NCBI GenBank assembly: GCA_030748895.1 | Contig: JASMLC010000003.1 | Coordinates: forward strand, 3,621-67,620 | Reading direction: 5' to 3' | DNA length: 64,000 nt | Source: Candidatus Poseidoniia archaeon | Lineage (GTDB): Archaea; Thermoplasmatota; Poseidoniia; MGIII; CG-Epi1 | In this document: piece by piece, positions 27,120-54,435 of the stretch | How positions within the stretch are numbered: position 1 is the first letter of the stretch | Layout: each line of letters begins with the position of its first letter | Notes under the pieces: model-generated | What the model saw: the letters and a program-made list of their open reading frames with translations, nothing else | Databases searched by the model: none | Told to the model about the DNA's origin: nothing | Program-made: the position numbers and the translations under genes

Positions 27120-27123
27120 TGTT

Positions 27124-34441: not shown

Positions 34442-34678
34442 ATGACTGATTTGCAGGCGGACCACCAGCTGGATTGCAGCGGCCTCAGCTGTCCGCTACC
34501 AATCCTGAAGACCAAGAAAACCATGGATGGCCTCGGGAGCGGGGAGGTGCTCCGGATGGTCTCGACCGACCCCGGTTCCCTTAGCGACGTCACCGCCTGG
34601 ACCAACCGCACCGGCAATCCACTGCTCGATACAGCGGAGGACGACGGCGATTACATTTTCTTCATCCGCAAGAAATAA
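34442..34678 (+). CDS. tusA: Sulfur carrier TusA
   Basis: LDCSGLSCPLP (CPxP) motif; start refined to ATG at 34442. Confidence 0.95.
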   Translation: MTDLQADHQLDCSGLSCPLPILKTKKTMDGLGSGEVLRMVSTDPGSLSDVTAWTNRTGNPLLDTAEDDGDYIFFIRKK

Positions 34679-34706
34679 CTAACTTAAATATACATCGAGT
34701 AGAAAA

Positions 34707-35222
34707 ATGAGTGGAAACGGAACCAAGCGCATGGCACTGATTGCCTCCAAGGGCACGCTGGACTGGGCCTACCCCCCCTTCATCCTCGCCTCGACCGCAG
34801 TGGCGATGGAGATGGAGGTGGCGGTCTTCTTCACCTTCTACGGACTGACGCTGCTCAAGAAAAAAATCAAGGCGGGCGTTTCGCCAGCGGGCAACCCTGC
34901 GATGCCGATGAAGATGCCTTTCGGCCCGGAAGGGTTCCAGAACCTCAGCTGGCCCATCCCCAACATCGTGAGCGGCAACGTCCCCGGCTTCGAGACGGTC
35001 GCCACTTCGCTGATGAAGAAGACCTTCAAGAACAAGGGCGTTGCAACCGTCGAGGAGCTGCGCGATATCTGCCTCGAGAGCGGCGTGAAGCTGATTGGCT
35101 GCCAGATGACGATGGACGTCTTCGGCTTCAAGAAGGAAGAATTCATCGATGGCGTCGATATCGGCGGCGCGGCGACCTTCCTCGAGTTCGCGGCGGACGC
35201 CGACATCCAGCTGTTCGTCTGA
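34707..35222 (+). CDS. dsrE: DsrE-family sulfurtransferase (DsrE2/DsrE3-type)
   Basis: KGTLDWAYPPFILASTA...FFTFYGL, IGCQMTMDVF, GAATFL. Confidence 0.9.
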   Translation: MSGNGTKRMALIASKGTLDWAYPPFILASTAVAMEMEVAVFFTFYGLTLLKKKIKAGVSPAGNPAMPMKMPFGPEGFQNLSWPIPNIVSGNVPGFETVATSLMKKTFKNKGVATVEELRDICLESGVKLIGCQMTMDVFGFKKEEFIDGVDIGGAATFLEFAADADIQLFV

Positions 35223-35281
35223 GCCTGACTACGGGCTGCACGGCATCGGAACTGGCAGTGTCCGGAATATGCAGATTATAT

Positions 35282-35303
35282 TATATACAGGTTTTTGTAT
35301 ATA
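35282..35303. promoter_or_regulatory. Perfect 8-6-8 inverted repeat TATATACA-GGTTTT-TGTATATA, candidate ArsR-family operator
   Basis: Sits in the AT-rich promoter region ~30 bp upstream of the ArsR gene. Confidence 0.6.
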
Positions 35304-35332
35304 GTGGCCGGCCAAAGATTGAGCGGTGAACC

Positions 35333-35701
35333 GTGGCAACTACAATTTCGACTGAATTCATCCAGACTGCTGCCCGTATCCTGAAGACCCTTGGCCATCC
35401 CGACCGGTTGAAAATAGTCGAGTTCCTCGAGCATGGGGAGAAGACCGTGGGGCAGATTCAGCGGAAATTCGACCTGCTCCAGCCGGTGACCAGCCAGCAC
35501 CTCAGGATACTGTTCGAGAGGGATATCGTCACCTTCCGGCAGGAGGGAACCCGGTACTATTACTCCCTGGCTAACAATTTCATCATCAAGATTCTGGATT
35601 GCATGGCCGAGGTACAGGAGAAACTGGATTCGGGAGAATGGGATTTTGACTTTGGCGTCGTGCACCAGAAAACCGGGGAGGGGGGACAGATTCATTCCTG
35701 A
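35333..35701 (+). CDS. ArsR/SmtB-family repressor (BigR/SqrR/sHdrR-like)
   Basis: LKTLGHPDRLKIV...EKTVGQI...QPVTSQHLRIL...V...EG...YYSL. Confidence 0.9.
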   Translation: MATTISTEFIQTAARILKTLGHPDRLKIVEFLEHGEKTVGQIQRKFDLLQPVTSQHLRILFERDIVTFRQEGTRYYYSLANNFIIKILDCMAEVQEKLDSGEWDFDFGVVHQKTGEGGQIHS

Positions 35702-35726
35702 AAGGGAATTAACGCACGAGGCAAAC

Positions 35727-36104
35727 ATGGACGACGACGATGGTAGTGTAATAATTTTCATGACTACCGGCCCCGCCACGCCGCAGCGCTGCGCGACGCC
35801 ATTCTATATGGCGACCATGGCAGCAGCGATGGACAGTGAAGCGCAGATGGTGTTCCAGATTGATGGTACCCTGCTGCTGAAGAGAGGCGTCGCCGAAAAC
35901 CTCGACGCCGTGGAAGGAGGCAAGAAGATTATTGATTTCATCCGCGAGGCGAAGGAGATGGGCGTGGAAATGTACGTCTGCTCCGCTTCGCTGGCGTTGC
36001 ACGGCATGACCAAGGAGGACCTCATCGAGGAGTGCGACGACGTGGTGGGTGCAGCCTACATGACCGAGGCGGGGCTGGAGAGCGACATGGTGCTGACTTA
36101 CTGA
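35727..36104 (+). CDS. dsrE: Second DsrE-family sulfurtransferase
   Basis: RCATPFYMA..AAAMD.E..MVF..DG..LL, YVCSASL; start refined to ATG at 35727. Confidence 0.85.
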   Translation: MDDDDGSVIIFMTTGPATPQRCATPFYMATMAAAMDSEAQMVFQIDGTLLLKRGVAENLDAVEGGKKIIDFIREAKEMGVEMYVCSASLALHGMTKEDLIEECDDVVGAAYMTEAGLESDMVLTY

Positions 36105-36565
36105 TGGCGCTGGTCCGGAACTGCCTGCTGCCGTCGGACCTGTTATACGACGTGCCGACCAACATCTGGGTACGGGAACTGGATGACGGCACGGTCGAAA
36201 TCGGGATGACCGATATCGCGCAGACGCTGGCAGGGTCAATTATCCACTGCCGCCCCAAGAAGGTGGGCAAGAAAGTCAAGAAAGGCAAAAGCGTGGCGAC
36301 CGTCGAGAGCGGTAAGTGGGTCGGCCCGGTGCGCTCGCCCTTCGCCGGCAATATCGCAGAGCGCAACGACGCGGTCGCCGACGACGCCACCATCCTGAAT
36401 CGCAGTCCCTACGGGGAAGGCTGGATTGTGCGCATTGCGCCCGCCGACCTGGAGGGGGGCCGGGCGGGGCTGGTCGGCGTCGAGGAGGCGATTACGCTCT
36501 ACGAGGATTACATGCAGGAAAAGGAGCTGGCGAGCTGCATCCACTGCGAGGGCTTCGAGGAATAA
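36104..36565 (+). CDS. lbpA: Lipoate-binding protein LbpA (GcvH-like)
   Basis: VESGKWVGPV lipoyl-Lys motif, NRSPYGEGW, Cys near both termini; no gcvT/gcvP nearby; precedes shdrC1. Confidence 0.88.
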   Translation: MALVRNCLLPSDLLYDVPTNIWVRELDDGTVEIGMTDIAQTLAGSIIHCRPKKVGKKVKKGKSVATVESGKWVGPVRSPFAGNIAERNDAVADDATILNRSPYGEGWIVRIAPADLEGGRAGLVGVEEAITLYEDYMQEKELASCIHCEGFEE

Positions 36566-36568
36566 CGC

Positions 36569-37291
36569 GTGCTCTCACTCTACAAGGATGCTGGATACCA
36601 GGACGTGCTGGTCGGGGAGAAACAGGCACTTTTTGACCAAGTGGCGCAGGACATGCGCTATCCGCACGAGCTCTACGGCTGCTACGAATGCGGTATCTGT
36701 GTCGCTGCCTGCCCCTCAGCGCGTTTCTACGATTTCAGCCCGCGCGTCTTCGCACAGGTGATGGCGCGCGAGGATGTCCACACCTTCTACGAGTTGCTCA
36801 ACGACTCGGTCTGGGACTGCTCGCAGTGCTTCTCCTGCACCTGCTGTCCGCGCGAGAACAATCCCGGAGCCATCATCACCATCATGCGCGAAGTGGCGGT
36901 GAACAACGGGCTCGCTTCCGCCAAGGAGGCGCTCCAGGCCTACTCCCGCATTATCTTCAAGGTGATGTCGACCGGTACCCAGGTCTCGCCCGATATGTTG
37001 CAACCTGACTTCTTCCCGGACTGGGGGCCGGACGTGCGCGACGTCTCGGAGAACCTCGATATCTGGCGCCGGGCGATACCCCCGGAGACAATGCACACTG
37101 TCGAGCTGGCTTGGGACGTCAGCGAGAAGACCCGGCTGGAGCTCTACATGATCTGGAAGCTGACCGGCAACCTCGAGATGATTGAGAATATCGACGAGGG
37201 GCTCTTCATGATTCTGGAGGAGGTCATGGAGGAATTGCTGGAGGAGCACGGCTATGATATCGATGATTTTGACAACATACTGGAGGGCTGA
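36569..37291 (+). CDS. shdrC1: sHdr iron-sulfur subunit C1
   Basis: CYECGICVAACP and CSQCFSCTCCP ferredoxin motifs; cluster position. Confidence 0.88.
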   Translation: MLSLYKDAGYQDVLVGEKQALFDQVAQDMRYPHELYGCYECGICVAACPSARFYDFSPRVFAQVMAREDVHTFYELLNDSVWDCSQCFSCTCCPRENNPGAIITIMREVAVNNGLASAKEALQAYSRIIFKVMSTGTQVSPDMLQPDFFPDWGPDVRDVSENLDIWRRAIPPETMHTVELAWDVSEKTRLELYMIWKLTGNLEMIENIDEGLFMILEEVMEELLEEHGYDIDDFDNILEG

Positions 37292-37297
37292 CTGAGG

Positions 37298-38518
37298 ATG
37301 GCAAGCGCACAGGTCCAGCTGGAGATGGCTGACAAATCCGTCCCCCTCAAGGCGGCGGAGCGCGAATTCGAGCGGCCTGCGGAGCCGCCAACCGAGGACC
37401 TGCGGGAACTGCTGTTCGAGCTGGAGGCGGCGGGCGAACTGGAGGTGCAGCGAGTCCCCGAACCCTACGTGGAGGTCGATACGAAATATGGCCGCAAGAA
37501 GAAAATCCCCATCGAGAACACCTGGCACCACAAGTCGTGCGGCCAGTGCGGGCACATCCCCGGCTACTCGACCTCCATATTCTGGCTGAATCGCCAGTTC
37601 GGCCTCGACTACCACGACCCGCGTGACCAGACCTCCTGCACCGCCTGGAACTACTACGCCTCCTCCACCTCGAACCCGGCCGCGCAGGCGGCGGTCGCCT
37701 GCCGCAACTTCGCGCAGGCGAAGCTGGACGGCTACTTCCCGCTCATCCACTGCGGCACCAGTTACGGCCATTACAAGGAGGTGCGCAACGAGCTGCTGCA
37801 CCACCCCGAGCTGCGCGCGCAGGTGCGACAAATCCTGGAACGACTCGGGCTGCCCTTCGTCTTCCCGGAGGAGATTGTGCACTACTCCGAATGGGTGCAT
37901 GTTATGCGGGACGATATCGCCAAAAAACAGGTTTACGACTTCTCCAGAATCACCGCGACCGTGCATCCCGCCTGCCACTACCACAAGCTGGTTGTCGAGG
38001 ACGCCATCTACGACCGCGACCTGTATGATGGACAGCGTACCGCCATCGTCTCCGGGCTGGTCAAGGCGCTGGGCGCCAAGGTAGCGGACTACTCGACCTG
38101 GCACGACTGCTGCGGCTTCGGTTTCCGGCACATTCTGGTCAGCCGCGACTTCTCCCGCTCGTTCGCGACCATCCGCAAGATTGAACGCATGAAGATAGAG
38201 GCCGACCCGGATGTCACGCTGACCCACGATACCGGCTGCGTCACAACGCTCGACAAAAGCCAGTTCTCGACGCAGGCGCACGGCCGCAACGTCGGCATCC
38301 CGGTGATGTCCGACGCACAGTTCGCCGCGCTCTCGATGGGGGCGCACCCCTACCTGGTCTGCCAGCTGCACTGGCATGGCGTCGACATGAAGCCGCTGCT
38401 GGAACTGATGGGGATTGACCACGTAAAGGCGTGGAAGGAGTTCGAAGGAATTGCGGACCACCTGAAGGACAATCCAGAAGAGTACCTTACCTGGGAGGAA
38501 TGCCTGGATGAGCAATAA
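37298..38518 (+). CDS. shdrB1: sHdr subunit B1 (CCG domains)
   Basis: HKSCGQCGHIPGY, DQTSCTAWNYY, HCGTSYG, HDCCGFGFRH, HDTGC. Confidence 0.92.
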   Translation: MASAQVQLEMADKSVPLKAAEREFERPAEPPTEDLRELLFELEAAGELEVQRVPEPYVEVDTKYGRKKKIPIENTWHHKSCGQCGHIPGYSTSIFWLNRQFGLDYHDPRDQTSCTAWNYYASSTSNPAAQAAVACRNFAQAKLDGYFPLIHCGTSYGHYKEVRNELLHHPELRAQVRQILERLGLPFVFPEEIVHYSEWVHVMRDDIAKKQVYDFSRITATVHPACHYHKLVVEDAIYDRDLYDGQRTAIVSGLVKALGAKVADYSTWHDCCGFGFRHILVSRDFSRSFATIRKIERMKIEADPDVTLTHDTGCVTTLDKSQFSTQAHGRNVGIPVMSDAQFAALSMGAHPYLVCQLHWHGVDMKPLLELMGIDHVKAWKEFEGIADHLKDNPEEYLTWEECLDEQ

Positions 38519-39572
38519 CAGAATAATGGTCATCGGCGGCGGGCCGGCCGGCCTTGAAGCGGCGCGTGGCGTCGTCGAGCTGGGATACGAGCTGGTGCTG
38601 GTGGAGCAACGGAACGAATTGGGCGGCACCCCCATCTCGGCCAGCTACGCGGCGCTGACGCCCGACATGGAAGATACCGAAGTGGCAATGGCGCGCATGG
38701 TTAACGCCGTCACGAACGATTCGCTCGCGGACATCCGGCTCGACAGCACTATTACGGCCGTCGAGGGGACCGCGCCCGACCTGAGCGTTACGCTCGAGAC
38801 GGAGGGCGGGTCCGAAGTGGTCGAGGTCGGCGCCGTGGTCGTCGCCACCGGATTCAAGCACTTCGACCCCGGCAAGGAGACGCAGCGCTACGGTTACTAC
38901 GAGTACGACGACGTAATCACGCTGGTCGACGCCGAGAAGATGCTCAAGGCGGGCAAGTTTGTCCGGCCGTCGACAGGGGAGCCGCCGAAGCAGGTCTGCT
39001 TCATCCAGTGCGTCGGCAGCCGCGACCGCCAGCTGGGGAACAAGTGGTGCTCGAAGGTCTGCTGCGGTATCGCCACCAAAGAGGCCATTGAAATCCGGCA
39101 GCTGCTGCCGGACTGCAAAGTAATCGTATTCTACATCGACATGCGCATGTACGGCTTCTGGGAGGATGAACTCTACTGGAAGGCGCAGGAGGAGGAGAAA
39201 GTCGCCTTCATCCGCGGTATCGTCAGCGAAGTCACCATGCGGGGGGACTCGGTCATGGTCAAGGGCGAGGATACCACTATGGGGCGGCCGATGGAGGTGT
39301 TGATGGACGTCGTCATCCTGTCCGTCGGGATGGAGCCCAGCGACGGCACCATCGCGATGGCCGAAATGTTCAACCTGCCGCTCGAATGTCACGGCTGGAT
39401 AGAGACCGTGGGTGGTGCGCTGAACACAGTGCAGACCCCGGTCGACGGAATTTTCGTCGCCGGCGCGGCCGCGGGACCGGCCGACCTCGAGGATTCCATC
39501 TCAATGGGGGGTGCCGCAGCGCTCAAGGCATGCGCGTTCGTGCGCCGCATCCAGCTGCCGGTAGTCGAATAA
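38508..39572 (+). CDS. shdrA: sHdr flavoprotein subunit A (short HdrA)
   Basis: IGGGPAG, QCVGSRD, CSKVCCG, FYIDMR; short form lacking the HdrA ferredoxin insert. Confidence 0.92.
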   Translation: MSNNRIMVIGGGPAGLEAARGVVELGYELVLVEQRNELGGTPISASYAALTPDMEDTEVAMARMVNAVTNDSLADIRLDSTITAVEGTAPDLSVTLETEGGSEVVEVGAVVVATGFKHFDPGKETQRYGYYEYDDVITLVDAEKMLKAGKFVRPSTGEPPKQVCFIQCVGSRDRQLGNKWCSKVCCGIATKEAIEIRQLLPDCKVIVFYIDMRMYGFWEDELYWKAQEEEKVAFIRGIVSEVTMRGDSVMVKGEDTTMGRPMEVLMDVVILSVGMEPSDGTIAMAEMFNLPLECHGWIETVGGALNTVQTPVDGIFVAGAAAGPADLEDSISMGGAAALKACAFVRRIQLPVVE

Positions 39573-39573
39573 C

Positions 39574-40341
39574 ATGCTCTACGATTCGTTGACCGTCCAG
39601 GAAGTGGTCGACTCCGAATCTTCGGCAGAATTCCTGAAGGAGGCGACCAAGCTCGCCACTTTGCGCGAGCTCGAAAACATCGCCCAGCGACTGGAGGCGA
39701 AACAGGAGCTGTTCGCAGAGCTGCTCGCCCCTAAACGGCTCGCAGCTTTGGCGAAGGCGGACTTCGTCCTGCTGCTGAGCCACGTCTTCTCAATCCGGCG
39801 CAAGGCACGCAGGCTGCTGCGGCTGGTCGGCGTCGAGCCCTTCCGCCAACAAACGCAGGAGCTGCTCTACGGCGAGGGCGACGTGGGCGACCGCTTCGAG
39901 CGCTTCCTGACCGCGTTCGAGGGGAAGCTCGATGAGCGCCGGTCCATCAACCTCGCCAGCGAACTGCTCCACTTCCACGACCCCGAGCAGTACTGCCTCT
40001 GGACCAGCTGGGTCTGGGACCCCGCCACCGGCTCGGGCGCGCTGCCGATGGTCGTGCAGGAAGGGGTCGAAATCGGCGGTGCAAGCCCCGCGGAGCGGTA
40101 CCGCAACGTCGGCGCCGCAGTGCGGCTGGTGAACGAGGTCGGGCAGGCGCGGAACCTCTCCGGGAACGCCGCCGGCATGCTGGGCACCAACCTGCTCCTC
40201 GCCTGCGTCCACGCCGTCTACATGTACACCGTCTTCCGGCTCAAGCTTTCGGACGAATTCAACCGCATCCTGCCGGAACTCCCCGAGCTTGTCGAGCGGG
40301 TGCTCGGCGTGCGCGGGCTGGAGGTGGCTGCACGTGGGTGA
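39574..40341 (+). CDS. shdrH: sHdr-associated hypothetical protein (sHdrH/Hyp)
   Basis: Position between shdrA and the second C/B module; ELLHF..PE.Y.LWTSWVWD motif. Confidence 0.7.
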   Translation: MLYDSLTVQEVVDSESSAEFLKEATKLATLRELENIAQRLEAKQELFAELLAPKRLAALAKADFVLLLSHVFSIRRKARRLLRLVGVEPFRQQTQELLYGEGDVGDRFERFLTAFEGKLDERRSINLASELLHFHDPEQYCLWTSWVWDPATGSGALPMVVQEGVEIGGASPAERYRNVGAAVRLVNEVGQARNLSGNAAGMLGTNLLLACVHAVYMYTVFRLKLSDEFNRILPELPELVERVLGVRGLEVAARG

Positions 40342-41614
40342 CCACAAGTATCAGGAATTCGTCGAGAAAGAGGAGGCTGTCATCGAAGGTATCGACGTCT
40401 CCGGCGCCTGGAACCGGATGTGGGTGCCGCGCGAACTGACCGAGTATGATTTTACTTTCCTCGACCGGGTCACCGACCTGTCGGGCGGCGAGTCTATGGG
40501 CTGGTGCTACCAGTGCGCCGAGTGCATCGGCGTCTGCCCGGTGGACAACGTCGGCTCGTATGGCCCGCGCAAGCTCTACCGCAAGCTGCAGACCGGGCTG
40601 GACCTGTTCAACCACCCCGACCTCTGGCTCTGCACCACCTGCAACAACTGCCTGCGGGTCTGCCCCAAGGAGGTGGACATGATGCAGATTATGCCGGCTG
40701 TACGCGAGCAGGCGATACTCGACGGCAACGTCCCCGGTGAATTGCAGGAGATGCTACAGAACGTCGCCGAGTACGGCAACCCGATGGGCGAGTCAGCGCG
40801 CAAGCGGATGCGCTGGTTGAAGAAGTTCGACGAGCCGGTGCGCGACCTCTCGAAGGAGCCGGGCGAGGTGGATGTGCTCTGGTACGTCAGCGACTACTTC
40901 AGCTACCACCCGCGCGGCAACGACGCCGCGAAGGCGATGGTGCGCGTCTTCAACCGGCTGGGGGTCGATTTCGGCATCCTCGGGCGCGACGAGCGCTGCG
41001 ACGGGGATTCGCAGCGGCTCTGCGGCGAGAGCGGGCTTTTCGAGGAGCTGGCGGAGCACAACCACGCGCTGTTCGAGCAGAACCCGCACGAGCGGCTGGT
41101 GGTGAGCGACCCGCACGCCTACAACGCCTTCCGGAACGAGTACCCGAAGCTGACCGGGACCGAATACAACGTCCAGCACTACACGCAGTTCCTGGCCGAA
41201 AAGGTGGAGCAGCTGACGGAAATGTTCACCGGCGAGTTTGCCCGCAAAGTCACCTTCCACGACCCCTGCTACCTCGGGCGGCACAACAACGAATACGAAG
41301 CTCCCCGCACGCTCATCGAGGCGGTCCCCGGCATCGAGTTCGTCGAGATGTTCTGCTGCAAGCAGCAGGGCTACTGCTGCGGCGGTGGCGGAGGCGGGAT
41401 GTGGCTCGACGGGATGGTCGCCGACCACACCACCGAGCGGCTGTCCGAGAACCGGGTCCGGGAGGCGGTCGAGGTCGGCGCCGAGGTGCTGGTAGTCTGC
41501 TGTCCCTACGAGGTCTCGCGCTTCGAGGACGCGGTGAAATCGACCGGGAACGATGGCAAGCTGGAGGTGCTCGATATCATCGAAATCATTGCCAGCTGCC
41601 TTGGAGACGGCTGA
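40334..41614 (+). CDS. Fused HdrC/HdrB-like subunit (sHdrC3B3-type, HdrD-like)
   Basis: CYQCAECIGVCP, CTTCNNCLRVCP, then HDPCYLGR, CCGGGGG, CCP; probable GTG start at 40334. Confidence 0.85.
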   Translation: MGDHKYQEFVEKEEAVIEGIDVSGAWNRMWVPRELTEYDFTFLDRVTDLSGGESMGWCYQCAECIGVCPVDNVGSYGPRKLYRKLQTGLDLFNHPDLWLCTTCNNCLRVCPKEVDMMQIMPAVREQAILDGNVPGELQEMLQNVAEYGNPMGESARKRMRWLKKFDEPVRDLSKEPGEVDVLWYVSDYFSYHPRGNDAAKAMVRVFNRLGVDFGILGRDERCDGDSQRLCGESGLFEELAEHNHALFEQNPHERLVVSDPHAYNAFRNEYPKLTGTEYNVQHYTQFLAEKVEQLTEMFTGEFARKVTFHDPCYLGRHNNEYEAPRTLIEAVPGIEFVEMFCCKQQGYCCGGGGGGMWLDGMVADHTTERLSENRVREAVEVGAEVLVVCCPYEVSRFEDAVKSTGNDGKLEVLDIIEIIASCLGDG

Positions 41615-41624
41615 AGGAGCAAAT

Positions 41625-42365
41625 ATGAAAATCGCAGTCCTGCTGAAAATGGTGCCCGACCTGGTCGAGGAACTCGAGGTTGACGCTTCGGGGAAGGCGC
41701 TCGACACAGATGAGCTAAAGTTCAAGCTTAACGAATTCGACGACCACGCGCTGGAAGAGGCACTGCTGCTCGGTGGCGAGGAAGACGAGGTCGTTGCCCT
41801 TGCGCTGGAGGGTGAGGAAAACGAAAAGCTGCTTTTCACCGCGCTCGCAAAGGGAGCCAACCGTGCAGTGCAACTCACCGGCGTGCAGCCGGGGGGCTCG
41901 GGCGAACAGGCGACAGCCTTCGCCGCTGCGCTAGCAGAAAGCAGCTTCGATTTGATCCTGACCGGCGTCCAGTCGGTCGATGACCGCGAAGGGCAGCTGG
42001 GGCCGCTGCTAGCGGCGCAAATGGGACTTCCGTGCGTTTCGGTCGTCACCGGCGTATCTGTCGCCGATGGCGTCGCGACGGTAAACAAGGAGTATTCCGA
42101 CGGCGTGATGGCCGAGTTCGAGGTCACGCTCCCGGCGGTGCTCGGCATCCAGGCGGCGCGGCAGCCGCCGCGCTACGCGCCGGTCAGCAAGGTGCGGCAG
42201 GTGCAGCAATCGGCGACGCTCGAGACGCTGGCGGTTAACGCTGGCGAAGCCGGAACGGGCAGCCAAATCACCGCGATGGCGCCGCCCGAGACCGGTGCGG
42301 GGGCGAAGATGCTCGACGACGCGACCGCGCTGCTGGAAGTACTGCGCGGCGAGGGGGTGGCGTAA
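41625..42365 (+). CDS. etfB: Electron transfer flavoprotein beta subunit
   Basis: KMVPD, NEFDDHALEEAL, GVQSVD...GQLG, PRY; start ATG at 41625 with SD GGAG. Confidence 0.93.
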   Translation: MKIAVLLKMVPDLVEELEVDASGKALDTDELKFKLNEFDDHALEEALLLGGEEDEVVALALEGEENEKLLFTALAKGANRAVQLTGVQPGGSGEQATAFAAALAESSFDLILTGVQSVDDREGQLGPLLAAQMGLPCVSVVTGVSVADGVATVNKEYSDGVMAEFEVTLPAVLGIQAARQPPRYAPVSKVRQVQQSATLETLAVNAGEAGTGSQITAMAPPETGAGAKMLDDATALLEVLRGEGVA

Positions 42366-43300
42366 TGGGCGGCGTGATGGTCGTCTGCGAGCATCTCTCG
42401 GGCGAGTTCGCCGATATTACTTTCGAGCTACTCGGGCTCGCCGCTGGTCTCGGGGCGGGCGAGGTGAGCGCGGTCACCTTCGGCTCCATGGCGGGCAAGG
42501 CGGGCGAACTGGGCGCCGCCGGCAGCGTCATCGACGCTGGTGGCGACGACGACTACAACCCGGAGGGCTACGCAGCAGCCGTCAGTGCGGCGGTCGAGGC
42601 GTACTCGCCCGACCTGCTGCTGGTCGGCTCGACCTCGATGGGGATGGATATTGCCGGCCCGGTCGCCGCCGCGCGCGGGCTGCCGCTGGTCGCCTACTGC
42701 ACCGCCGTCGAGGGCGCCAACGGGGGGTTCGCCTGCAGCAGTTCGCTCTACGGCGGCAAGCTGGGCGTCAGCTCGCAGGTCTCCAGCCCGGCAGTGGCGA
42801 TGCTACTGCCGGGCGCCTGCGACGGGGACACGGGTCGCGTTACCGGGTCGCCTTCGGTGAGCGAGCTCGCCGTCCCGGAGTTGGCCGGGAAGGTGCGCTT
42901 CAGCCGGCTCATCGAGCCCGAGGCGGGGGACGTTGACATCACCCAGTCGGGAGTGCTGGTGGCGGTCGGCCGCGGAATCGGGAGCAAGGACGATATCGAG
43001 CTGGCGGAAGAGCTGGCCGAGCTGCTCGACGCCGACCTCGCCTGCTCGCGGCCCATCGTCGACGCCGGCTGGATGGAAAAATCACGGCAGATTGGTAAAT
43101 CGGGCTTCAAGGTCAAGCCACGTGTCTACATCGCCCTCGGTATCTCCGGCGCGCCGGAGCACATCGAAGGGATGAAGGATTCAGCGACGATTATCGCCAT
43201 CAACAGCGACGAGGACGCGCCTATCTTCGACGTCGCCCACTACGGCCTCGCCGAGGACCTGTTCGACGTCTGCGAAGAACTGGTCGAGGAGCTGGAATGA
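42365..43300 (+). CDS. etfA: Electron transfer flavoprotein alpha subunit
   Basis: VAVGRGI, ACSRPIVD, QIGKSG, YIALGISGAPEH, AINSD.DAPIF. Confidence 0.95.
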   Translation: MGGVMVVCEHLSGEFADITFELLGLAAGLGAGEVSAVTFGSMAGKAGELGAAGSVIDAGGDDDYNPEGYAAAVSAAVEAYSPDLLLVGSTSMGMDIAGPVAAARGLPLVAYCTAVEGANGGFACSSSLYGGKLGVSSQVSSPAVAMLLPGACDGDTGRVTGSPSVSELAVPELAGKVRFSRLIEPEAGDVDITQSGVLVAVGRGIGSKDDIELAEELAELLDADLACSRPIVDAGWMEKSRQIGKSGFKVKPRVYIALGISGAPEHIEGMKDSATIIAINSDEDAPIFDVAHYGLAEDLFDVCEELVEELE

Positions 43301-43318
43301 GCCGGGAGGGCGGCCGCG

Positions 43319-45331: not shown

Positions 45332-46740
45332 CCAACTACGGCTTCGTCATCGACAACCGGTCCTGCATCGGCTGCCACGCCTGCACGGTCGCCTGCAAGT
45401 CGGAGCACGATGTCCCCATCGGGGTGAACCGTACCCACGTCAAGTACATCGAGAAAGGGACCTTCCCAAACAGCAGCCGCGAATTCAGCGTCCACCGCTG
45501 CAACCATTGCGAGGACGCGCCCTGCACCACCCTCTGCCCCACCACCGCACTCTTCACCCGCGATGACGGCATCGTCGATTTCGACGATGCCCGCTGCATC
45601 GGCTGCAAGTCCTGCATGCAGGCGTGCCCCTACGACGCGCTCTACATAGACCCCAATCAGGGCACCGCGGCGAAGTGCAACTACTGCGTCCACCGGCTCG
45701 AGAATTCCTACGAGCCAGCCTGCGTTATCGTCTGCCCCACCGAGGCCATCATCTCGGGCGACCTTGACGACCCCGGCTCGAGGATAGCGCAGCTTGTTGC
45801 CATCCATGAGACGACGGTGCGCAAGCCCGATTCGGGAGCGAAACCAAATGTCTTCTACATCGATGCGAGCGAGGAGATGCTCGACCCCACCGCCACCGCG
45901 CGCACCGGGACCGGGATGTGGAGCGAGCAGGTCGCCGGCGTCGGCCATTTCGCGAAATACGCCGAGCAGCGGCTCGAAGCTGCCGACAACAACTCGCTGC
46001 TAATCCAGCTCGCGCTGGAAAAGAAGGCGAGCGAGGCGCCGCCGCGCGACCGCGCCATCATCTGCGACGTCGCCGCCAAGCTGGCCGACGAATCCCCGCA
46101 GGCTAAACGCGCCTACGACGCGCCGTCGAAAGGCGTCCTTTGGGGCTGGGAAGTCTCCGCCTACATCTGGACCAAGGCGATTGCGTCAGGGACCTATCTG
46201 GTCGCGACGCTGCTCTGGCTCGGCGACTATCTCGAGATGGAAACACAGCTCTGGTGGCTGGTGGTGGGAACCGGGCTTGCATTCCTGGGCATCACCGGCG
46301 CGCTGCTCGTGCTCGACCTTGACCGGCCCGACCGCTTTCTTTACATCATGCTGCGGCCCAACTGGAGCTCGTGGCTCGTCAGGGGCGCCTACCTGCTGGC
46401 GAGCTTCGGTGGAATCCTGGCCGCCACCACCGCGGTGCTGTTCTTCGAACTTGACGAATCGCTCCTGCGCTGGCTCGCCTACGCCGGCATCCCGCTCTCC
46501 GCGCTCACCGCCGTCTACACGGCGTGGCTGTTCCAGCAGGCGAAGGGACGCTCGTGGTCGCGCGACGCCGCGCTGCCGGCGAAGTTCATGCTCGAGACTA
46601 TTGTCATCGGCTCCGCCACGCTGCTGATACTTACCAGCCCCGCGCCGCTCTACATCCTGGCGGCACTGGCAGTACTGGCGGCAGCCCTGCTGCACGGCCG
46701 GAAAGTGGTGCAGGAGCCGCAACTGGAGAGCCTGATATGA
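45328..46740 (+). CDS. Fused 4Fe-4S electron-transfer subunit (PsrB/DmsB-like) and NrfD/PsrC-like membrane anchor
   Basis: CIGCHACTVAC, CNHCEDAPC, CIGCKSCMQACPY, KCNYC; then WGWEVSAY...DLDRPDRF...SWLVRGA TM region. Confidence 0.9.
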   Translation: MTNYGFVIDNRSCIGCHACTVACKSEHDVPIGVNRTHVKYIEKGTFPNSSREFSVHRCNHCEDAPCTTLCPTTALFTRDDGIVDFDDARCIGCKSCMQACPYDALYIDPNQGTAAKCNYCVHRLENSYEPACVIVCPTEAIISGDLDDPGSRIAQLVAIHETTVRKPDSGAKPNVFYIDASEEMLDPTATARTGTGMWSEQVAGVGHFAKYAEQRLEAADNNSLLIQLALEKKASEAPPRDRAIICDVAAKLADESPQAKRAYDAPSKGVLWGWEVSAYIWTKAIASGTYLVATLLWLGDYLEMETQLWWLVVGTGLAFLGITGALLVLDLDRPDRFLYIMLRPNWSSWLVRGAYLLASFGGILAATTAVLFFELDESLLRWLAYAGIPLSALTAVYTAWLFQQAKGRSWSRDAALPAKFMLETIVIGSATLLILTSPAPLYILAALAVLAAALLHGRKVVQEPQLESLI

Positions 46741-49526: not shown

Positions 49527-49562
49527 TGTGGTGGAGAATGGAAAACGGTCGATGGAGCTGCG

Positions 49563-50702
49563 ATGATTGAACTGCCGATAGCAGCCGCGGCCGGGAAGAA
49601 TTGCGAAAGCGATGCGGGAGGGACGATAACGCATGTGCGCACGAGTCAGGCAGCAGCGCTGGTGATGGGGGCCGAGAAGGGGCAGTTCTACCGCGGGGCG
49701 AAACTGCACTCGATTAACGTCCTGCTCGACTATGAGGATGGCTGCCATGCGCGGTGCGGCTACTGCGGCCTGGCCAAGTCGCGCGAATCGGAGGATGACT
49801 GGACCGACCGCTCATTCATCCGGGTCAACTGGCCGCTGGTCTCTCTCGATCAGGTAAACGAGTCCATCAGCAGCGGCTCGGTGCCGGACATCGAACGCGT
49901 CTGCGTCTCGATGGTACTCAATCGCGGGGCGCGGGAGGATACGATTGACGCGGTCCGCAAGCTCTCGGAATCCACCTCACGCATCTCAATCCTGCTGATG
50001 CCAACGGTAATTGACAAGGAATGGCTAATCCGGGCGAAAGAGGCAGGGGCCGACATGGTCGCCACTGCGCTTGACGCGGCGACCCGTAAGGTGTTCAACT
50101 CCGTGCGCGGCAAGGACGTGCAGGGGCCGCTGGACTGGGATCAGTACTGGGAAATCGTCGTCGACACCATCGAGGTCTTCGGCCCGCGCAACGCCGGCAT
50201 CCACCTTGTCGCAGGGCTGGGCGAGACCGAGCAGGAGATGGTGGCGACCATGCAGGAGGCGTACGACATGGGCGCGCTGACGCACCTTTTCTCGTTCAAC
50301 CCCGAGCCTGGAACGGCCCTCGGCGAGTGGCCGCAGCCGCCAATCGGTTCCTACCGCCGCATACAGCTCGCGCGCTACATCATCAACGAGCATTTCGGCC
50401 GCGGCGACGCGATGGCCTTTGATGACAAGGGGAATATCGTGGACTTCGACCTCGAGTCGGAACTGCTCAAGCAGCTCATTGACGAGGGGAAGGCGTTCAT
50501 GACATCGGGCTGTGCCGGGAAAACGGTCGATTGCGCCTGCAATCGACCGTTCGGGAACTGCACGCCCTACCAGGCGGCGCAGGGACGCTGGCGCAACTTC
50601 CCGATTCCACCCGAGGAATCCGATATCGTCCACGCGCGGCGGCAGCTGCTGGACTACGACGGAAAGGAGGATGAGGAAATTGATCCCTTTGACGATGACT
50701 GA
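49563..50702 (+). CDS. lipS2: Radical SAM lipoyl synthase subunit LipS2
   Basis: CHARCGYC (CX3CX2C) and C-terminal TSGC...CNRP motif. Confidence 0.82.
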   Translation: MIELPIAAAAGKNCESDAGGTITHVRTSQAAALVMGAEKGQFYRGAKLHSINVLLDYEDGCHARCGYCGLAKSRESEDDWTDRSFIRVNWPLVSLDQVNESISSGSVPDIERVCVSMVLNRGAREDTIDAVRKLSESTSRISILLMPTVIDKEWLIRAKEAGADMVATALDAATRKVFNSVRGKDVQGPLDWDQYWEIVVDTIEVFGPRNAGIHLVAGLGETEQEMVATMQEAYDMGALTHLFSFNPEPGTALGEWPQPPIGSYRRIQLARYIINEHFGRGDAMAFDDKGNIVDFDLESELLKQLIDEGKAFMTSGCAGKTVDCACNRPFGNCTPYQAAQGRWRNFPIPPEESDIVHARRQLLDYDGKEDEEIDPFDDD

Positions 50703-51717
50703 AACTCGCCAGGATATCATCGATTTCTGTATGACTGCCCCCGAGGCGGAGCTCGAGCCGCTTTTCGAGCAGGCGTGGACGCAGTCCCGCCAGCGTTTTG
50801 GCAACAGCATCTCACTCAATGTTCCCGGAATGGTCTCGTACGAGACTGAGCACATTGCCGAAGACGACCCCTTCCGGTTCCCCTCGATTTCGATTACCGG
50901 CCCCGCCTGCTCCCTCGGCTGCGAGCATTGCGATGCGAAGATGGTTGAGACCATGATACCAGCCACCACTCCGGAGGCGCTCTGGGATATGTTTCTCAAA
51001 ACCGTCGAGCGGGGGGGCACCGGCTGCCTTGTGAGCGGTGGCTCGACCCTCGCGGGCGATGTGCCGCTACTGCGGTTCATCCCGACCATCAAGCGCGCCA
51101 AGCAGGAGCTGGGGCTCGCGATTGTCGTCCATACGGGCGTCGTCTACGAGGAGGTGGCCGCCGCGCTGGGAGAAGCAGGTATCGACGGGGCGATGCTCGA
51201 TATCATGGGCTCGAACGACACCATCCGCGAAATCTACCACCTCGACCTCATGAAGGAGGCGTTCGAGCATTCGATGGAGCTGCTCAACAGGTACGGAGTG
51301 CCGCTGATGCCGCACATCGTGGTCGGGCTGCAGCGCGGTGAGTTGCGGGGCGAAGCCGAAGCAGTGCGCATGATTGCCCGCCACAACCCGGAGCGGGTGA
51401 TGGTAGTCGCGTTCAAGCCACTGCTCGGGACACCGATGGAGAACTCGCCCACCAGCACCCCGCTGGAGATTGCCCGCGTAGTGCTCGCCTGCCGGCTGGC
51501 GATGCCGGATACGACGGTCATCATGGGCTGCGCGCGCCCGCCGGGGGAGCACAAGGTCGAGACCGACCGACTGGTCATCCGGGCCGGGGTGAACGGGATG
51601 GCGTACCCTTCCGAGGAAGGGCACGACTTTGCGCGCGAGCTGGGGCTCGACATCTCGGTCTCGTCGGGCTGCTGCTGCCTGATGGATGACGAAGCGAAGG
51701 GAGGCTGCTGCAATTGA
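50695..51717 (+). CDS. lipS1: Radical SAM lipoyl synthase subunit LipS1
   Basis: CSLGCEHC, GCARP and terminal CCC motifs; start uncertain (50671-50695). Confidence 0.82.
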   Translation: MTETRQDIIDFCMTAPEAELEPLFEQAWTQSRQRFGNSISLNVPGMVSYETEHIAEDDPFRFPSISITGPACSLGCEHCDAKMVETMIPATTPEALWDMFLKTVERGGTGCLVSGGSTLAGDVPLLRFIPTIKRAKQELGLAIVVHTGVVYEEVAAALGEAGIDGAMLDIMGSNDTIREIYHLDLMKEAFEHSMELLNRYGVPLMPHIVVGLQRGELRGEAEAVRMIARHNPERVMVVAFKPLLGTPMENSPTSTPLEIARVVLACRLAMPDTTVIMGCARPPGEHKVETDRLVIRAGVNGMAYPSEEGHDFARELGLDISVSSGCCCLMDDEAKGGCCN

Positions 51718-53372
51718 GCCGCGAAGCGGGAAAGTGGCGGTTGCTCGACACCGGCGTCCACACCGCCGCCGAGAACATGGCGCTGGACCAGGCACTCTTC
51801 GACGCGCGCGTTGCCGGCGAGGTCCCGAACACGCTGCGCTTCATGCAATTCTCACCTTCGGCGGTGCTCGTTGGCCACCACCAAGTAGTTGCCCAAGAGG
51901 CACGGGTTGACTGGTGCGCGAAGCACAGTGTCGATATCAACCGGCGATTGACTGGCGGCGGCGCGATTTACTTTGACGCGACCCAGATTGGGTGGGAACT
52001 GGTCGGCTCCCTCGACGATTTTACGGGCCGGGACATGACCGGGCTGACCCGTACCATCTGCGAGGCGGCCGCCGCCGGCCTGCAGGAACTCGGAGTGGCG
52101 GCGGAGTTCAGGCCGCGCAACGACATTGAGGTCGAGGGACGCAAAATCTCGGGCACCGGCGGGGTCGCCGACGACGGGGTCTTCCTCTACCAGGGGACGG
52201 TGCTGGTCGAGTTCGACATCGAGGCGATGCTGCTGGCGCTACGCATTCCGAACGAGAAACTCACGCCGCGAGGGCTCGAGACCGCTCGCGAGCGGGTCTC
52301 CTGCCTTTCGGACCTGCTGTCGCAGGTTCCCGCGAGGGAGCAAATCCAGGCGGCGCTCGCCAGCGCCTTCGCGCACGCCTTCGAAATCGAGTTCGAAACC
52401 GGCGAGCTGACGGCATGGGAGCAGGAGCGATTTGCGTCAAAACTGCCTGAAATCGAGTCGGACGACTGGATAAACGCCATCACGGCGCCGGCCGAGGACA
52501 AGCAAATCTACACTTCAATCCACAAGCGACCGGGAGGGATGCTGCGCATTCACGCCGCGGTCGACGTCAAGCGCTCGTGGCTGCGGCAGGTCCTGATTAC
52601 GGGCGACTTCTTCATCAATCCCCGCCGGGCAATCATGGACCTGGAGGCGGAGTTGATGAACACCCCGTTTCCCCAGGTGCGCCCGGTCATCATGCGCTTC
52701 TTCGAAAAGCACAAGGTGGATCTGGTCGGGCTCACCCCGGGGGATTTCTGCGACGCGGTCAAGCTTGCGCTGGAGCAGACCACCTACAGTGGCATCGGGA
52801 TTGCGGAGGCGGACTCGAGCTCGGTCTATCCCGTAAACGTCCCCGAAGGCAAGAGCATCGAGCAGGTTATGTCGGACGCGACCGTCATGTTGCTCCCCTA
52901 TTGCGCAAAGCTGCCTGATTGCGACTACCGCTTCAAGCAGGGATGCGACGAGTGCGGTCTCTGTAGTATGGGTGATGCCTACCGCATGGCGCGGGAGAAT
53001 GGGCTGGAAGCGGTCACCATCGTCAAGTTCAAGCATCTCAAGGCAACACTCGCTGAAATGAAGGCGCAAGGCGTCAAGTCCTGGATTGGTTGCGCTTGCG
53101 AGGCGTTCTTCATCAAGCGCAACGAGGCGTTCCGTGACGCCGGGATTCCCGGCGTGGTGCTGGATATCGTTGGCAAGACTTGCTACCAGCTGGGCGAGGA
53201 GGGCGAGGCGTACGCTGGCACCTTCGAGGCGCAGGCGGACCTGAAGCTGCCGCTGCTGGAGGCGGTAATGGACAACGTCAACCCGGAATTCAACGCCAGG
53301 TTCATTCAACCCACGACGCCTACTACGACCGCCGACCAGCATGCCAGCGCCGAGCGGAATTTCAGCGTATGA
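51714..53372 (+). CDS. lplA: Lipoate:protein ligase sLpl(AB) type with extra Cys-rich C-terminal (DUF116-like) domain
   Basis: NMALD, RRLTGGGAIYFD, RNDIEVEGRKISGTG, GDFF; tail LLPYC...CDECGLC...IGCACE. Confidence 0.88.
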   Translation: MSREAGKWRLLDTGVHTAAENMALDQALFDARVAGEVPNTLRFMQFSPSAVLVGHHQVVAQEARVDWCAKHSVDINRRLTGGGAIYFDATQIGWELVGSLDDFTGRDMTGLTRTICEAAAAGLQELGVAAEFRPRNDIEVEGRKISGTGGVADDGVFLYQGTVLVEFDIEAMLLALRIPNEKLTPRGLETARERVSCLSDLLSQVPAREQIQAALASAFAHAFEIEFETGELTAWEQERFASKLPEIESDDWINAITAPAEDKQIYTSIHKRPGGMLRIHAAVDVKRSWLRQVLITGDFFINPRRAIMDLEAELMNTPFPQVRPVIMRFFEKHKVDLVGLTPGDFCDAVKLALEQTTYSGIGIAEADSSSVYPVNVPEGKSIEQVMSDATVMLLPYCAKLPDCDYRFKQGCDECGLCSMGDAYRMARENGLEAVTIVKFKHLKATLAEMKAQGVKSWIGCACEAFFIKRNEAFRDAGIPGVVLDIVGKTCYQLGEEGEAYAGTFEAQADLKLPLLEAVMDNVNPEFNARFIQPTTPTTTADQHASAERNFSV

Positions 53373-53379
53373 GGCACTG

Positions 53380-54435
53380 ATGCCCCTGGAGTGGGACCTA
53401 ATCGTGGTCGGTGGCGGCCCCGGGGGCGCCGCCGCGGCCGCCGTTGCGGCCGTGGCGGGACTGGAGACGCTGTTACTCGAGCGCGGCGGGACGTTGCGGC
53501 ACAAGCCATGCGGCGGAATCCTGCCCGAAATCACCGAGGAACTCATCGAGGAAGTGTTTGGCGCCCCGCTGCCGCCCGAGGTGCTGGCGGAGCAGGGGGA
53601 GCTTCGCCTGCGCTACACCCCCCCGAGCGGCGAGGCGAACGGCGGACGCGTGCGGGAGAGTCGCCTGCTCAACGTGAAGCGAGACCATTTCGACCAGTGG
53701 CTGCGCGACCGCGCGGCGCTCGCGGGCGCGACCGTGCAGCATGACGCGCGGGTTTCGGACGTGGAAGCGAACGGCGGATTCAGCATCAGCTACAGCCAGC
53801 GTGGCAAGGAGCGGCAAGCAACGGCTGCACAGCTGGTGGGCGGTGACGGAGTCCACTCACTGGTTCGGCGCAGGCTCGCGCCAGACGCGGCCGCGCCGAA
53901 AATGCTCGTCGGCCAGCGGCTGGTGCGGGTCGCTGGTGAATTGCCGGCCGACTTCCACTGCGTTTTCGCCGGGATGCTCAGCCCGTTCTACGCCTACACC
54001 GTACCGAAGGGCGGGCTGCTCAAGATCGGGAGCGGGATGACTGAGGAGGAACGGACCGACCTGATGCCATCGCTCGACCGCTTCAGCGAATGGCTCGAGC
54101 AGAACGGCATAGCCAAGCTCGGCGAAGTGGTCCAGCAGGAGGGCTGGGCAATCCCCTTCGGGGAACCGCGGCTCGACGCTGCGGGTGCGCTGCTCGTCGG
54201 CGACGCGGCAGGGCTCTGCAACCCACTCTCGGGGGAGGGCATCCGGCTGGCCATCGAGAGCGGACAGTTGGCGGCCGAGGCGATTATCGAGTCGGGAGCG
54301 CGGTCGCCTGTACAGAACTACCGTGAAGGCGTCGCCGGCATCGCACAGATGGTAGCCGCGCTGCATCGCATCGTGCTCGCCACCGACGATGAAACGCGCG
54401 AAAAGTTCGTCGCCGCTGAACTCGCTCGCCCGTAG
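53380..54435 (+). CDS. lipT: FAD-dependent geranylgeranyl-reductase-like oxidoreductase, probable LipT
   Basis: GGGPGG, KPCGG, GDAAGLCNPLSGEGI; last gene of the lipS/lpl module; start ATG at 53380. Confidence 0.75.
   Translation: MPLEWDLIVVGGGPGGAAAAAVAAVAGLETLLLERGGTLRHKPCGGILPEITEELIEEVFGAPLPPEVLAEQGELRLRYTPPSGEANGGRVRESRLLNVKRDHFDQWLRDRAALAGATVQHDARVSDVEANGGFSISYSQRGKERQATAAQLVGGDGVHSLVRRRLAPDAAAPKMLVGQRLVRVAGELPADFHCVFAGMLSPFYAYTVPKGGLLKIGSGMTEEERTDLMPSLDRFSEWLEQNGIAKLGEVVQQEGWAIPFGEPRLDAAGALLVGDAAGLCNPLSGEGIRLAIESGQLAAEAIIESGARSPVQNYREGVAGIAQMVAALHRIVLATDDETREKFVAAELARP

Follow-up and report, generated by a model that had tools for sequence, protein, structure and literature searches.

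A predicted sulfane-sulfur-oxidizing type II sHdr gene cluster in a Marine Group III-type archaeon

[quoted passage not shown] Type I systems, as in Hyphomicrobium denitrificans, Aquifex, Acidithiobacillus, and Sulfolobales, have separate sHdrC2 and sHdrB2 subunits and no Etf or EMO proteins. Type II systems, as in Sulfobacillus, Chloroflexota, and Actinomycetota (PMC4378227, PMC11094781), are defined by the genes shdrC1B1AHB3 together with etfAB in one syntenic cluster (PMC11582611, PMC11094781). They were reported from 130 GTDB assemblies belonging to one archaeal phylum, Thermoplasmatota, and 12 bacterial phyla (PMC11094781), so that the occurrence of type II sHdr in Thermoplasmatota is already known from one sentence of that paper. 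Here we describe such a cluster on a 64,000-nucleotide stretch of contig JASMLC010000003.1 from a Candidatus Poseidoniia archaeon (this whole stretch is called the window below). We consider it likely that the cluster encodes a type II sHdr-LbpA system for the cytoplasmic oxidation of sulfane sulfur, joined by a Soe-like molybdenum (Mo) enzyme and a lipoate assembly gene set, in a chromosome of the Marine Group III (MGIII) type.

What we add here is the assignment of such clusters to MGIII and Marine Group IIb (MGIIb) hosts, their modular relation to an operon of the persulfide dioxygenase (PDO) type, and a candidate sulfite-oxidizing module. Within the searchable literature, outside of which many subscription papers lie, no paper paired Marine Group II (MGII) with sHdr, and the papers pairing Poseidoniales or MGIII with heterodisulfide concern other subjects as far as their titles and abstracts tell. 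Among planktonic archaea, Marine Groups II and III rank with the most abundant, and models treat them as organoheterotrophs.

Composition of the cluster

Open reading frame (ORF) listing and family searches placed 19 co-oriented, tightly packed genes on the plus strand between the ATG of tusA (34442) and the stop codon of a lipT-like gene (54435), in the order tusA, dsrE, arsR, dsrE, lbpA, shdrC1-B1-A-H-B3, etfB, etfA, an EMO-like gene, a fused FeS/NrfD gene, a Mo enzyme gene, lipS2, lipS1, an LplA-DUF116 fusion, and the lipT-like gene (Table 1). Gene starts follow the gene calls on public contigs that encode an identical sHdrA. Overlaps of 1 to 32 bases occur at eight junctions, and gaps longer than 30 bases at only three places (110, 111, and 36 bases). 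All genes except shdrH gave a significant family match (18 of 19), and cofactor motifs are intact across the cluster, in TusA, LbpA, sHdrA, sHdrC1, sHdrB3, EMO, LipS1, and LipS2. An earlier note on this DNA had listed the genes and their order from the sequence, and every one of the 19 was found as named. The signal is far beyond chance, with sHdrA recurring on many contigs and the gene order repeated across lineages.

The block from shdrC1 to etfA (36569 to 43300) is contiguous, co-oriented, and both orthologous to and syntenic with at least eight other type II loci, and judged by its predicted proteins the cluster is a type II sHdr by the published definition. The type II call of the earlier note therefore stands: its fused C/B protein is sHdrB3, and it is accompanied by etfAB and an EMO-like gene. 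The gene set and order are those of the bacterial type II clusters, which share the fused sHdrB3 with one noncubane site, EtfAB, an EMO-like protein, LbpA, TusA/DsrE, and predicted lipoate assembly genes, and the core proteins are 55 to 87% identical to those of uncultured bacteria. The window differs from the bacterial systems in its archaeal host, in holding the FeS-NrfD/Mo module in the same operon, in the fusion of the ligase to DUF116, and in having a single lbpA. With type I systems it shares sHdrA, B1, C1, H, LbpA, and TusA/DsrE, the fused sHdrB3 taking the place of the separate sHdrC2 and sHdrB2.

Two CxxCxxCxxxC(P)-type motifs occur in each of sHdrC1, sHdrB3, and EMO, and sHdrB3 and EMO each hold one complete CCG site. 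In sHdrB3 the cysteines form an 8 + 5 pattern, comprising the two CxxCxxCxxxC motifs and five cysteines around a single CCG site (four invariant and one present in 12 of 13 sequences), the first CCG region being degenerate, which agrees with the published description of this subunit (PMC11094781). Eight cysteines are invariant in sHdrC1, which is 65 to 86% identical to its counterparts in type II clusters; sHdrB1 (70 to 89%) likewise has eight, with a ninth in 10 of 11 sequences. The EMO-like protein has transmembrane segments, is 40 to 73% identical to its type II counterparts, and follows etfAB in those loci as it does here; its make-up, a transmembrane/His domain with two cubane motifs and a CCG, agrees with theirs in all type II loci. 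No Pfam or NCBIfam model matched sHdrH, and a homologue of it (35 to 91% identity) lies between shdrA and shdrB3 in every related locus.

The sHdrA protein separates this system from methanogen-type heterodisulfide reductases. It has the GxGxxG motif and four invariant cluster cysteines (C168, C181, C185, and C186), and it shares both its architecture and these cysteines with type I sHdrA, being 39% identical to PDB entry 6tjr; we took this entry, which bears the name of a generic flavoprotein, as sHdrA by its organism and length, and it is cited as the H. denitrificans sHdrA structure (PMC11094781). The match to 6tjr is full length (283 bits), whereas methanogen HdrA, of about 650 residues, aligns only to the core, residues 104 to 343 of sHdrA (163 to 197 bits). 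In a neighbor-joining (NJ) tree, built like all trees here from few sequences and without bootstrap, the window's sHdrA and its archaeal relatives fell inside bacterial type II, with H. denitrificans type I as sister and methanogen HdrA as outgroup. HdrABC-MvhAGD and FlxABCD-HdrABC share with the window the thioredoxin-reductase core of HdrA, the CCG fold of HdrB, and the ferredoxin HdrC, but the window's 354-residue HdrA is without the N-terminal, inserted, and C-terminal ferredoxin domains of the methanogenic protein, no mvh, flx, or fdh genes lie beside the cluster, and LbpA, TusA, and DsrE are present. A methanogen-type Hdr was rejected on these grounds, and the grouping of HdrA with methanogen sequences that the earlier note had named as a refutation did not occur.

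The cluster also contains TusA and DsrE3-like transferases with active-site cysteines, the accessory proteins of type II systems. TusA is 41 to 59% identical to TusA in related operons, and the 171-residue DsrE is 77 to 82% identical to its counterparts in sHdr-type and PDO-type operons alike. For the 125-residue DsrE the best PDB match is 3mc3 (3.5e-15, full length), which is DsrE3A of Saccharolobus solfataricus (PMC11094781). Whereas DsrE3B was reported as the only transferase of type II clusters in Thermoplasmatota (PMC11094781), the window holds a clear TusA and two DsrE proteins.

The lysine of the ESGKW motif in LbpA aligns with the lipoyl-lysine of GcvH, but the identity of the protein to the first LbpA in other shdr clusters is 44 to 93%, against 34 to 40% for three true GcvH sequences. 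It groups with the LbpA proteins of shdr clusters in an NJ tree (few references, three GcvH, no bootstrap) in which the three GcvH form a clade of their own, and neither gcvT nor gcvP lies near lbpA. We rejected an identity as GcvH from this separation, which also answers the second refutation named in the earlier note. LbpA ends in a CIHCEGFE tail with a CxxC motif (residues 143 to 153; window 36530 to 36562). In type II clusters of archaea and of several bacteria the leading LbpA keeps this tail, with CFRC or CMRC elsewhere; the three GcvH fragments, from PDB, end ahead of this region, so the tail comparison extends to LbpA proteins only. In the MGIIb locus (L028 5921-6214) and the closest bacterium (L029 5900-6178), lbpA and shdrC1 are separated by a gene for a thioredoxin-like protein whose motif is C-x-G-C (CPGC or CAGC). 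This gene is absent from the window, where the two neighbors are 3 bases apart.

The ArsR-family regulator has one conserved cysteine (C90), which in the alignment is common to its orthologues in MGIIb, in locus L016, and in the MGII PDO-type operon, and any persulfide sensing by this single residue would need to work between subunits.

Table 1. Predicted genes of the cluster and the tRNA genes directly upstream of it (window positions)
Feature	Position	Strand	Evidence
tRNA-Met	34035-34112	-	ARAGORN
tRNA-Asn	34144-34220	-	ARAGORN
tusA	34442-34678	+	Pfam TusA 2.6e-23, 82 bits; CPLP active-site cysteine
dsrE, DrsE_2 type, 171 aa (DsrE2/3-like)	34707-35222	+	Pfam DrsE_2 1.5e-51; PDB 3pnx, 2qs7, 3mc3
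arsR, ArsR-family regulator	35333-35701	+	Pfam HTH_5 4.5e-11
dsrE, DsrE3-like, 125 aa	35727-36104	+	Pfam DsrE 3.6e-17
lbpA	36104-36565	+	Pfam GCV_H 1e-34; lipoyl-lysine in ESGKW; C-terminal CIHCEGFE tail
shdrC1, 2x[4Fe-4S] ferredoxin-like	36569-37291	+	NCBIfam HdrC best matches, below cutoff
shdrB1, CCG-domain putative catalytic subunit	37298-38518	+	Pfam CCG; NCBIfam HdrB 3.6e-36
shdrA, 354-aa Fe/S flavoprotein	38508-39572	+	PDB 6tjr full length, 283 bits
shdrH, conserved protein, no known family	39574-40341	+	Syntenic position
shdrB3, fused HdrC-like (2 cubane) and HdrB-like (one noncubane site)	40334-41614	+	Pfam Fer4_8 and CCG
etfB	41625-42365	+	Pfam ETF and ETF_alpha across etfB and etfA; syntenic in all type II loci
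etfA	42365-43300	+	As for etfB
EMO-like membrane protein: N-terminal transmembrane/His domain, 2x[4Fe-4S], CCG	43412-45331	+	Pfam Fer4 and CCG
Fused four-cluster ferredoxin (PsrB/DmsB/TtrB-like) and N-terminal half of NrfD-type anchor	45328-46740	+	Pfam Fer4_11 and NrfD
Mo/W-bis(pyranopterin guanine dinucleotide) (bisPGD) catalytic subunit, 929 aa	46737-49526	+	Pfam Molybdop_Fe4S4, Molybdopterin, Molydop_binding; FS0 motif
lipS2, radical-SAM lipoyl synthase pair	49563-50702	+	CxxxCxxC
lipS1, radical-SAM lipoyl synthase pair	50671-51717	+	CxxxCxxC
Lipoate:protein ligase and Cys-rich DUF116 fusion	51714-53372	+	Pfam LplA-B_cat 1.4e-43, DUF116 1.9e-10
lipT-like FAD oxidoreductase (geranylgeranyl-reductase-like)	53380-54435	+	Pfam FAD_binding_3 4.2e-15

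Host, contig integrity, and origin

The host belongs to Thermoplasmatota and is an archaeon of the Marine Group III type; the earlier note had supposed as much at the level of the phylum. Archaeal NMD3, Cdc6/Orc1, Hjc resolvase, the small subunit DP1 of PolD, and housekeeping genes lie on both sides of the cluster. At 90% identity or more, Cdc6, SerRS, and the Mo subunit have cluster mates named Marine Group III euryarchaeote CG-Bathy2, Marine Group III euryarchaeote, and Candidatus Poseidoniia archaeon, which NCBI places under Thermoplasmatota. MGIII archaea are deep-sea plankton usually seen as feeders on organic matter.

A bacterial segment wrongly joined to an archaeal contig, in assembly or binning, could account for the lower GC content inside the cluster (0.58 to 0.65, against 0.67 to 0.70 outside) and for core proteins that are 55 to 82% identical to bacterial ones. 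We regard the chance of this as negligible. An identical sHdrA was read on 14 public contigs, and six loci agree in every gene of the cluster and its near flanks; they come from five different sources (ENA metagenome assemblies, two in number, two NCBI metagenome-assembled genomes [MAGs], a Logan assembly, and a Tara run), on contigs of up to 88 kb. A further contig of 86.9 kb, from another assembly and retrieved through two flank genes, has the distal part of the cluster together with the distant flanks on either side. For third-codon-position GC (GC3) the values are 0.84 (cluster) and 0.86 (flanks), and the dip is confined to codon positions 1 and 2, where it follows from a different amino acid composition. 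Archaeal genes flank both sides, the cluster has the GC of its carrier in archaeal relatives of 42%, 60%, and 62% GC, and the lip genes with the LplA-DUF116 fusion are specific to archaeal lineages. The matching GC3 and the recurrence in independent assemblies exclude the chimeric join that the earlier note had raised against itself. A recent transfer is unlikely and was rejected as well, GC3 being ameliorated and relatives of 42% to 68% GC holding the cluster at host GC.

Few archaeal names appear among the homologues of sHdrB3, all at 82% identity or above (Poseidoniia/MGIII at 92 to 100% and the MGIIb Candidatus Thalassarchaeaceae at 82%), and the sequence collection lists the MGIIb protein in 100 blocks. 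The next homologues belong to a bacterium with a type IX secretion gene (77%), Marinimicrobia (73%), and Chloroherpeton thalassium (69%), followed at 62 to 70% by Myxococcota, Acidobacteriota, and Armatimonadota. A scan of public contigs with sHdrB3 used exact peptide seeds and returned 10 loci, which makes it a sample of related loci, not a census of Thermoplasmatota. In all full-length loci synteny is kept from tusA to emo. The gene order recurs in archaea and in at least six bacterial phyla: it is found in the MGIIb Thalassarchaeaceae locus (L028) and, on the bacterial side, in the bacterium with a type IX secretion gene and in MAGs whose labels are Acidobacteriota, Acidimicrobiia, Planctomycetota, Gemmatimonadota, and Actinomycetota.

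The four archaeal sequences stay together in small NJ trees of sHdrA, B1, B3, C1, and EMO, as a single clade nested among bacteria, beside marine bacterial lineages. This nesting within bacterial type II suggests an old transfer from bacteria, and marine bacteria are the most likely ancient source of the core sHdr block.

Small Acidithiobacillus ferrooxidans plasmids, pACF1 among them (L014 787-4490), carry a solitary sHdrB1-like gene, 52% identical to that of the window, beside GcvH/LbpA-like and hemerythrin-domain genes and with no other shdr genes. The Acidithiobacillus plasmid loci were rejected as a reference sHdr cluster because they hold only this lone HdrB1-like gene.

The molybdoenzyme module

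The FeS-NrfD protein has four cluster motifs and transmembrane segments, its NrfD part matches positions 7 to 194 of the 313 in the NrfD hidden Markov model, and its best NCBIfam matches, TtrB and DsrO, fall below cutoff. Its partner, the Mo subunit, has no twin-arginine (Tat) motif or hydrophobic region within the first 60 residues. The pair has the architecture of SoeABC (Allochromatium vinosum, Aquifex aeolicus, and Ruegeria), namely a Tat-less, cytoplasm-facing Mo-bisPGD subunit of about 930 residues that has FS0, together with a four-cluster ferredoxin and an anchor of the NrfD type, and both systems are tied to cytoplasmic sulfite-producing pathways; the likeness drawn here is one of architecture and context. 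The window's version departs from SoeABC in the fusion of B to C, in an anchor of half length, and in the gene order BC-A.

Among characterized or named proteins, the nearest relatives of the Mo subunit are reductases. Among characterized proteins its best matches are Thermus PsrA (2vpw, 1.5e-37) and NCBIfam PhsA (193 bits against a cutoff of 694), and Cys196 aligns with the region of the Mo-ligand cysteine in Thermus PsrA and Shewanella ArrA. The PsrABC and PhsABC enzymes, however, are Tat-exported, periplasmic, and made of three separate subunits, and the Mo subunit is neither predicted to be exported nor scored above their family cutoff. Representatives named thiosulfate/polysulfide reductase chain A by JGI reach only about 33% identity. 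At 50% clustering the family has one main full-length representative, followed by several unnamed ones, full length or longer, at 41 to 46%. Close homologues, including those from a tblastn search of plasmids, bear generic names, none of them SoeA; no curated model covers the family, and NCBIfam contains no SoeA model.

The FeS-NrfD/Mo pair is a mobile two-gene unit. MGIII, MGIIb, and Actinomycetota have it within their shdr clusters or next to them; beside the Acidobacteriota cluster, the retrieved stretch takes in only the FeS-NrfD gene. In MGII (Poseidoniales) it belongs to an operon of arsR, tusA, dsrE (DrsE_2), a rhodanese/persulfide dioxygenase fusion, FeS/NrfD, Mo, and TauE, with no shdr genes, and the PDO-type operon of a marine bacterium has a DASS transporter in place of TauE (the MGII and bacterial loci are L025/L026 6224-13610, L030, and L031 5777-14317). 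Plasmid pRHL3 of Rhodococcus jostii has a dsrE-tusA-FeS/NrfD-Mo-mrp operon within a sulfide-detoxification island, again in a persulfide dioxygenase context. In Thermomicrobium roseum the pair stands alone beside a CsoR-like regulator, and in Natrinema it occurs with mrp. A Mo subunit 72% identical to that of the window is encoded on a GC-rich contig with bacterial-type neighbors (L027 8852-12856), where it has no FeS-NrfD partner; a 350-residue protein without a family lies upstream, and multihaem cytochrome genes are near.

ArsR, TusA, the DrsE_2-type DsrE, FeS-NrfD, and Mo of the window are 41 to 79% identical to their counterparts in the PDO-type MGII operon. With these identities the archaeal cluster looks like a shared frame in which the PDO block was exchanged for dsrE3-lbpA-shdr-etf-emo, and the sHdr block appears to have replaced the PDO block in an older arsR-tusA-dsrE...FeS/NrfD-Mo frame. 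Sulfite is the cytoplasmic product of persulfide dioxygenase as well as of sHdr, and TauE and DASS proteins are transporters of sulfite/sulfate-type anions. Because both types of upstream enzyme yield sulfite, the pair is probably a Soe-like sulfite:quinone oxidoreductase of an uncharacterized family, an assignment made from gene context. A bolder version, which we put forward tentatively and would not favor over its negation, is that it represents an uncharacterized family of cytoplasmic sulfite:quinone oxidoreductases, like SoeABC in function but not orthologous to it, and serves as the common step after PDO in MGII or sHdr in MGIII and MGIIb. It may equally be, with the same reservation, that an O2-dependent PDO block and an O2-independent sHdr block are interchangeable within the conserved arsR-tusA-dsrE frame.

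An unlikely but serious alternative is that the substrate is not sulfite but thiosulfate, polysulfide, or a thiosulfonate or persulfide bound to TusA or DsrE; thiosulfate, for example, might be cleaved to sulfite and carrier-bound sulfane sulfur that would feed sHdr or persulfide dioxygenase. The Psr/Phs-type kinship of the closest characterized and named relatives with their Cys Mo ligand is in its favor, as are the generic JGI names of close homologues in place of SoeA. A further point is that rhodanese-fused persulfide dioxygenases such as CstB form thiosulfate. The module was also counted as always accompanying TusA and the DrsE_2-type DsrE (77 to 82% identical), a point met by T. roseum and haloarchaea, which carry it without either. 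Reduction of thiosulfate by quinol is strongly endergonic, and the position of the module argues for sulfite as the substrate: two unrelated enzymes that form sulfite precede it, and TauE or DASS anion exporters lie downstream.

Proposed pathway and physiological role

The products of lipS1 and lipS2 are 76 to 78% identical to those of genes adjoining the MGIIb cluster. There, lipS2, lipS1, and LplA-DUF116 (76 to 80% identical overall; the ligase fusion at L028 1-1584) are divergent and lie upstream of the cluster. Bacterial lip counterparts are 29 to 41% identical, and the bacterial sLpl covers from about the first half up to 0.66 of the ligase (283 to 367 of 552 residues), leaving the DUF116 part unaligned. 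The adjacency kept in archaea and the distance of the bacterial lip genes point to a history of the lip genes separate from that of the sHdr core. The assignment of the terminal flavoprotein as LipT is tentative.

We infer the function of the cluster from homology and gene context, and the same footing applies to its substrate, its direction, its exits to quinone through Etf/EMO and FeS-NrfD, the sulfite intermediate, and regulation by a one-cysteine ArsR. We hypothesize that TusA and the two DsrE proteins would carry protein-bound sulfane sulfur, in persulfide form, to a complex of sHdrA, B1, C1, B3, and H; working with lipoylated LbpA, this sHdr complex would oxidize the sulfur to sulfite. 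From sHdr, electrons would pass to EtfAB, then to the EMO-like protein in the membrane, and so reach the quinone pool. Sulfite could then be oxidized to sulfate by the cytoplasm-facing Mo-bisPGD enzyme, with electrons reaching quinone through the fused ferredoxin/NrfD protein. LipS1, LipS2, LplA-DUF116, and possibly the LipT-like flavoprotein may assemble the lipoyl cofactor of LbpA, and the ArsR protein probably represses the cluster until sulfane sulfur is present.

Several points weigh against this pathway. The nearest characterized or named relatives of the Mo subunit are reductases, with a Cys ligand to Mo as in Psr and Arr. Characterized sHdrR has two cysteines, and the ArsR here has one. 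The top NCBIfam matches of the lipoyl synthases fall below cutoff (LipS2 with 210 bits against 270, LipS1 with 207 against 230), and the lipT-like gene has no counterpart in any related locus compared. The trees are NJ reconstructions of the limited kind stated above, and no type II system has been worked on experimentally (PMC11094781). Lastly, the window contains no SQR, rhodanese, Sox, or sulfane-sulfur importer genes; with no enzyme there that generates or imports sulfane sulfur, the description of the route as self-contained in the earlier note was too strong.

The same biochemistry might serve something other than lithotrophic growth, such as disposal of sulfane sulfur or harvest of its electrons during breakdown of organosulfur compounds (cysteine, methionine, or methanethiol from dimethylsulfoniopropionate), or persistence in starvation. 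We think this rather improbable, somewhat more so than a different substrate for the Mo enzyme, although it and a lithotrophic role are not mutually exclusive. The host lineage is regarded as heterotrophic, and Sox, SQR, and carbon-fixation genes are missing from the window. The MGII sister operon combines a detoxification-type persulfide dioxygenase with an ArsR regulator. In the heterotroph T. roseum, the type II cluster is part of a starvation regulon and is induced 45-fold in starvation (PMC6776052). An outlay of 19 genes over 20 kb with two quinone-reducing exits, on the other hand, points to energy conservation.

A reductive role seems to us very improbable; in it, ETF-linked substrate oxidation would supply electrons to EMO/sHdr or to the Mo enzyme, and a disulfide, polysulfide, or sulfite would be reduced in low-O2 niches. 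Hdr and Psr relatives are indeed reductases, EMO was first described in syntrophs with the opposite electron flow, and the isolate label of one archaeal relative, SI054, resembles that of a Saanich Inlet sample. Against this, the Mo enzyme faces the cytoplasm, cytochrome c maturation by the CcmF encoded in the window fits a respiratory life, and the pairing of TusA/DsrE with LbpA is a signature of sulfur oxidizers in all studied cases (PMC11094781).

If the oxidative pathway is correct, a route from sulfane sulfur to sulfate with two quinone-reducing exits would give these archaea a supplementary energy source, inorganic or derived from organosulfur, and would place archaea on the oxidative side of the pelagic sulfur cycle. 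Should the bolder version of the Mo module hold, abundant planktonic Poseidoniia would be sulfur-oxidizing lithoheterotrophs taking part in cryptic sulfur cycling in the ocean, an ecologically significant host for a system already catalogued in its phylum. The locus is a compact natural type II operon in which the core is combined with an electron exit and with predicted sulfite oxidation, cofactor assembly, and regulation. The recurring FeS-NrfD/Mo module is also a candidate for the missing cytoplasmic sulfite oxidation in many organisms from which canonical SoeABC is absent.

The surroundings of the cluster offer some further observations. The window starts within a CcmF cytochrome c maturation gene (1-1710), which implies c-type cytochromes in this MGIII archaeon. 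The tRNA-Met/tRNA-Asn pair directly upstream of tusA also precedes tusA in the 92%-identical locus L015 and was not found in L016 or L017; it could mark a former integration site. Large predicted surface proteins flank the region (6777-9302 on the minus strand, and beyond 64000, L008 1-1522); they match CARDB, Ig-like, or fn3 faintly and are of a kind typical of the cell-surface genes of Poseidoniia. At its 68% GC the window gives rise to many false ORFs, as at the tRNA-Arg gene (27379-27453), which lies inside two long overlapping spurious ORFs (27088-28140 on the plus strand and 27124-28239 on the minus strand).

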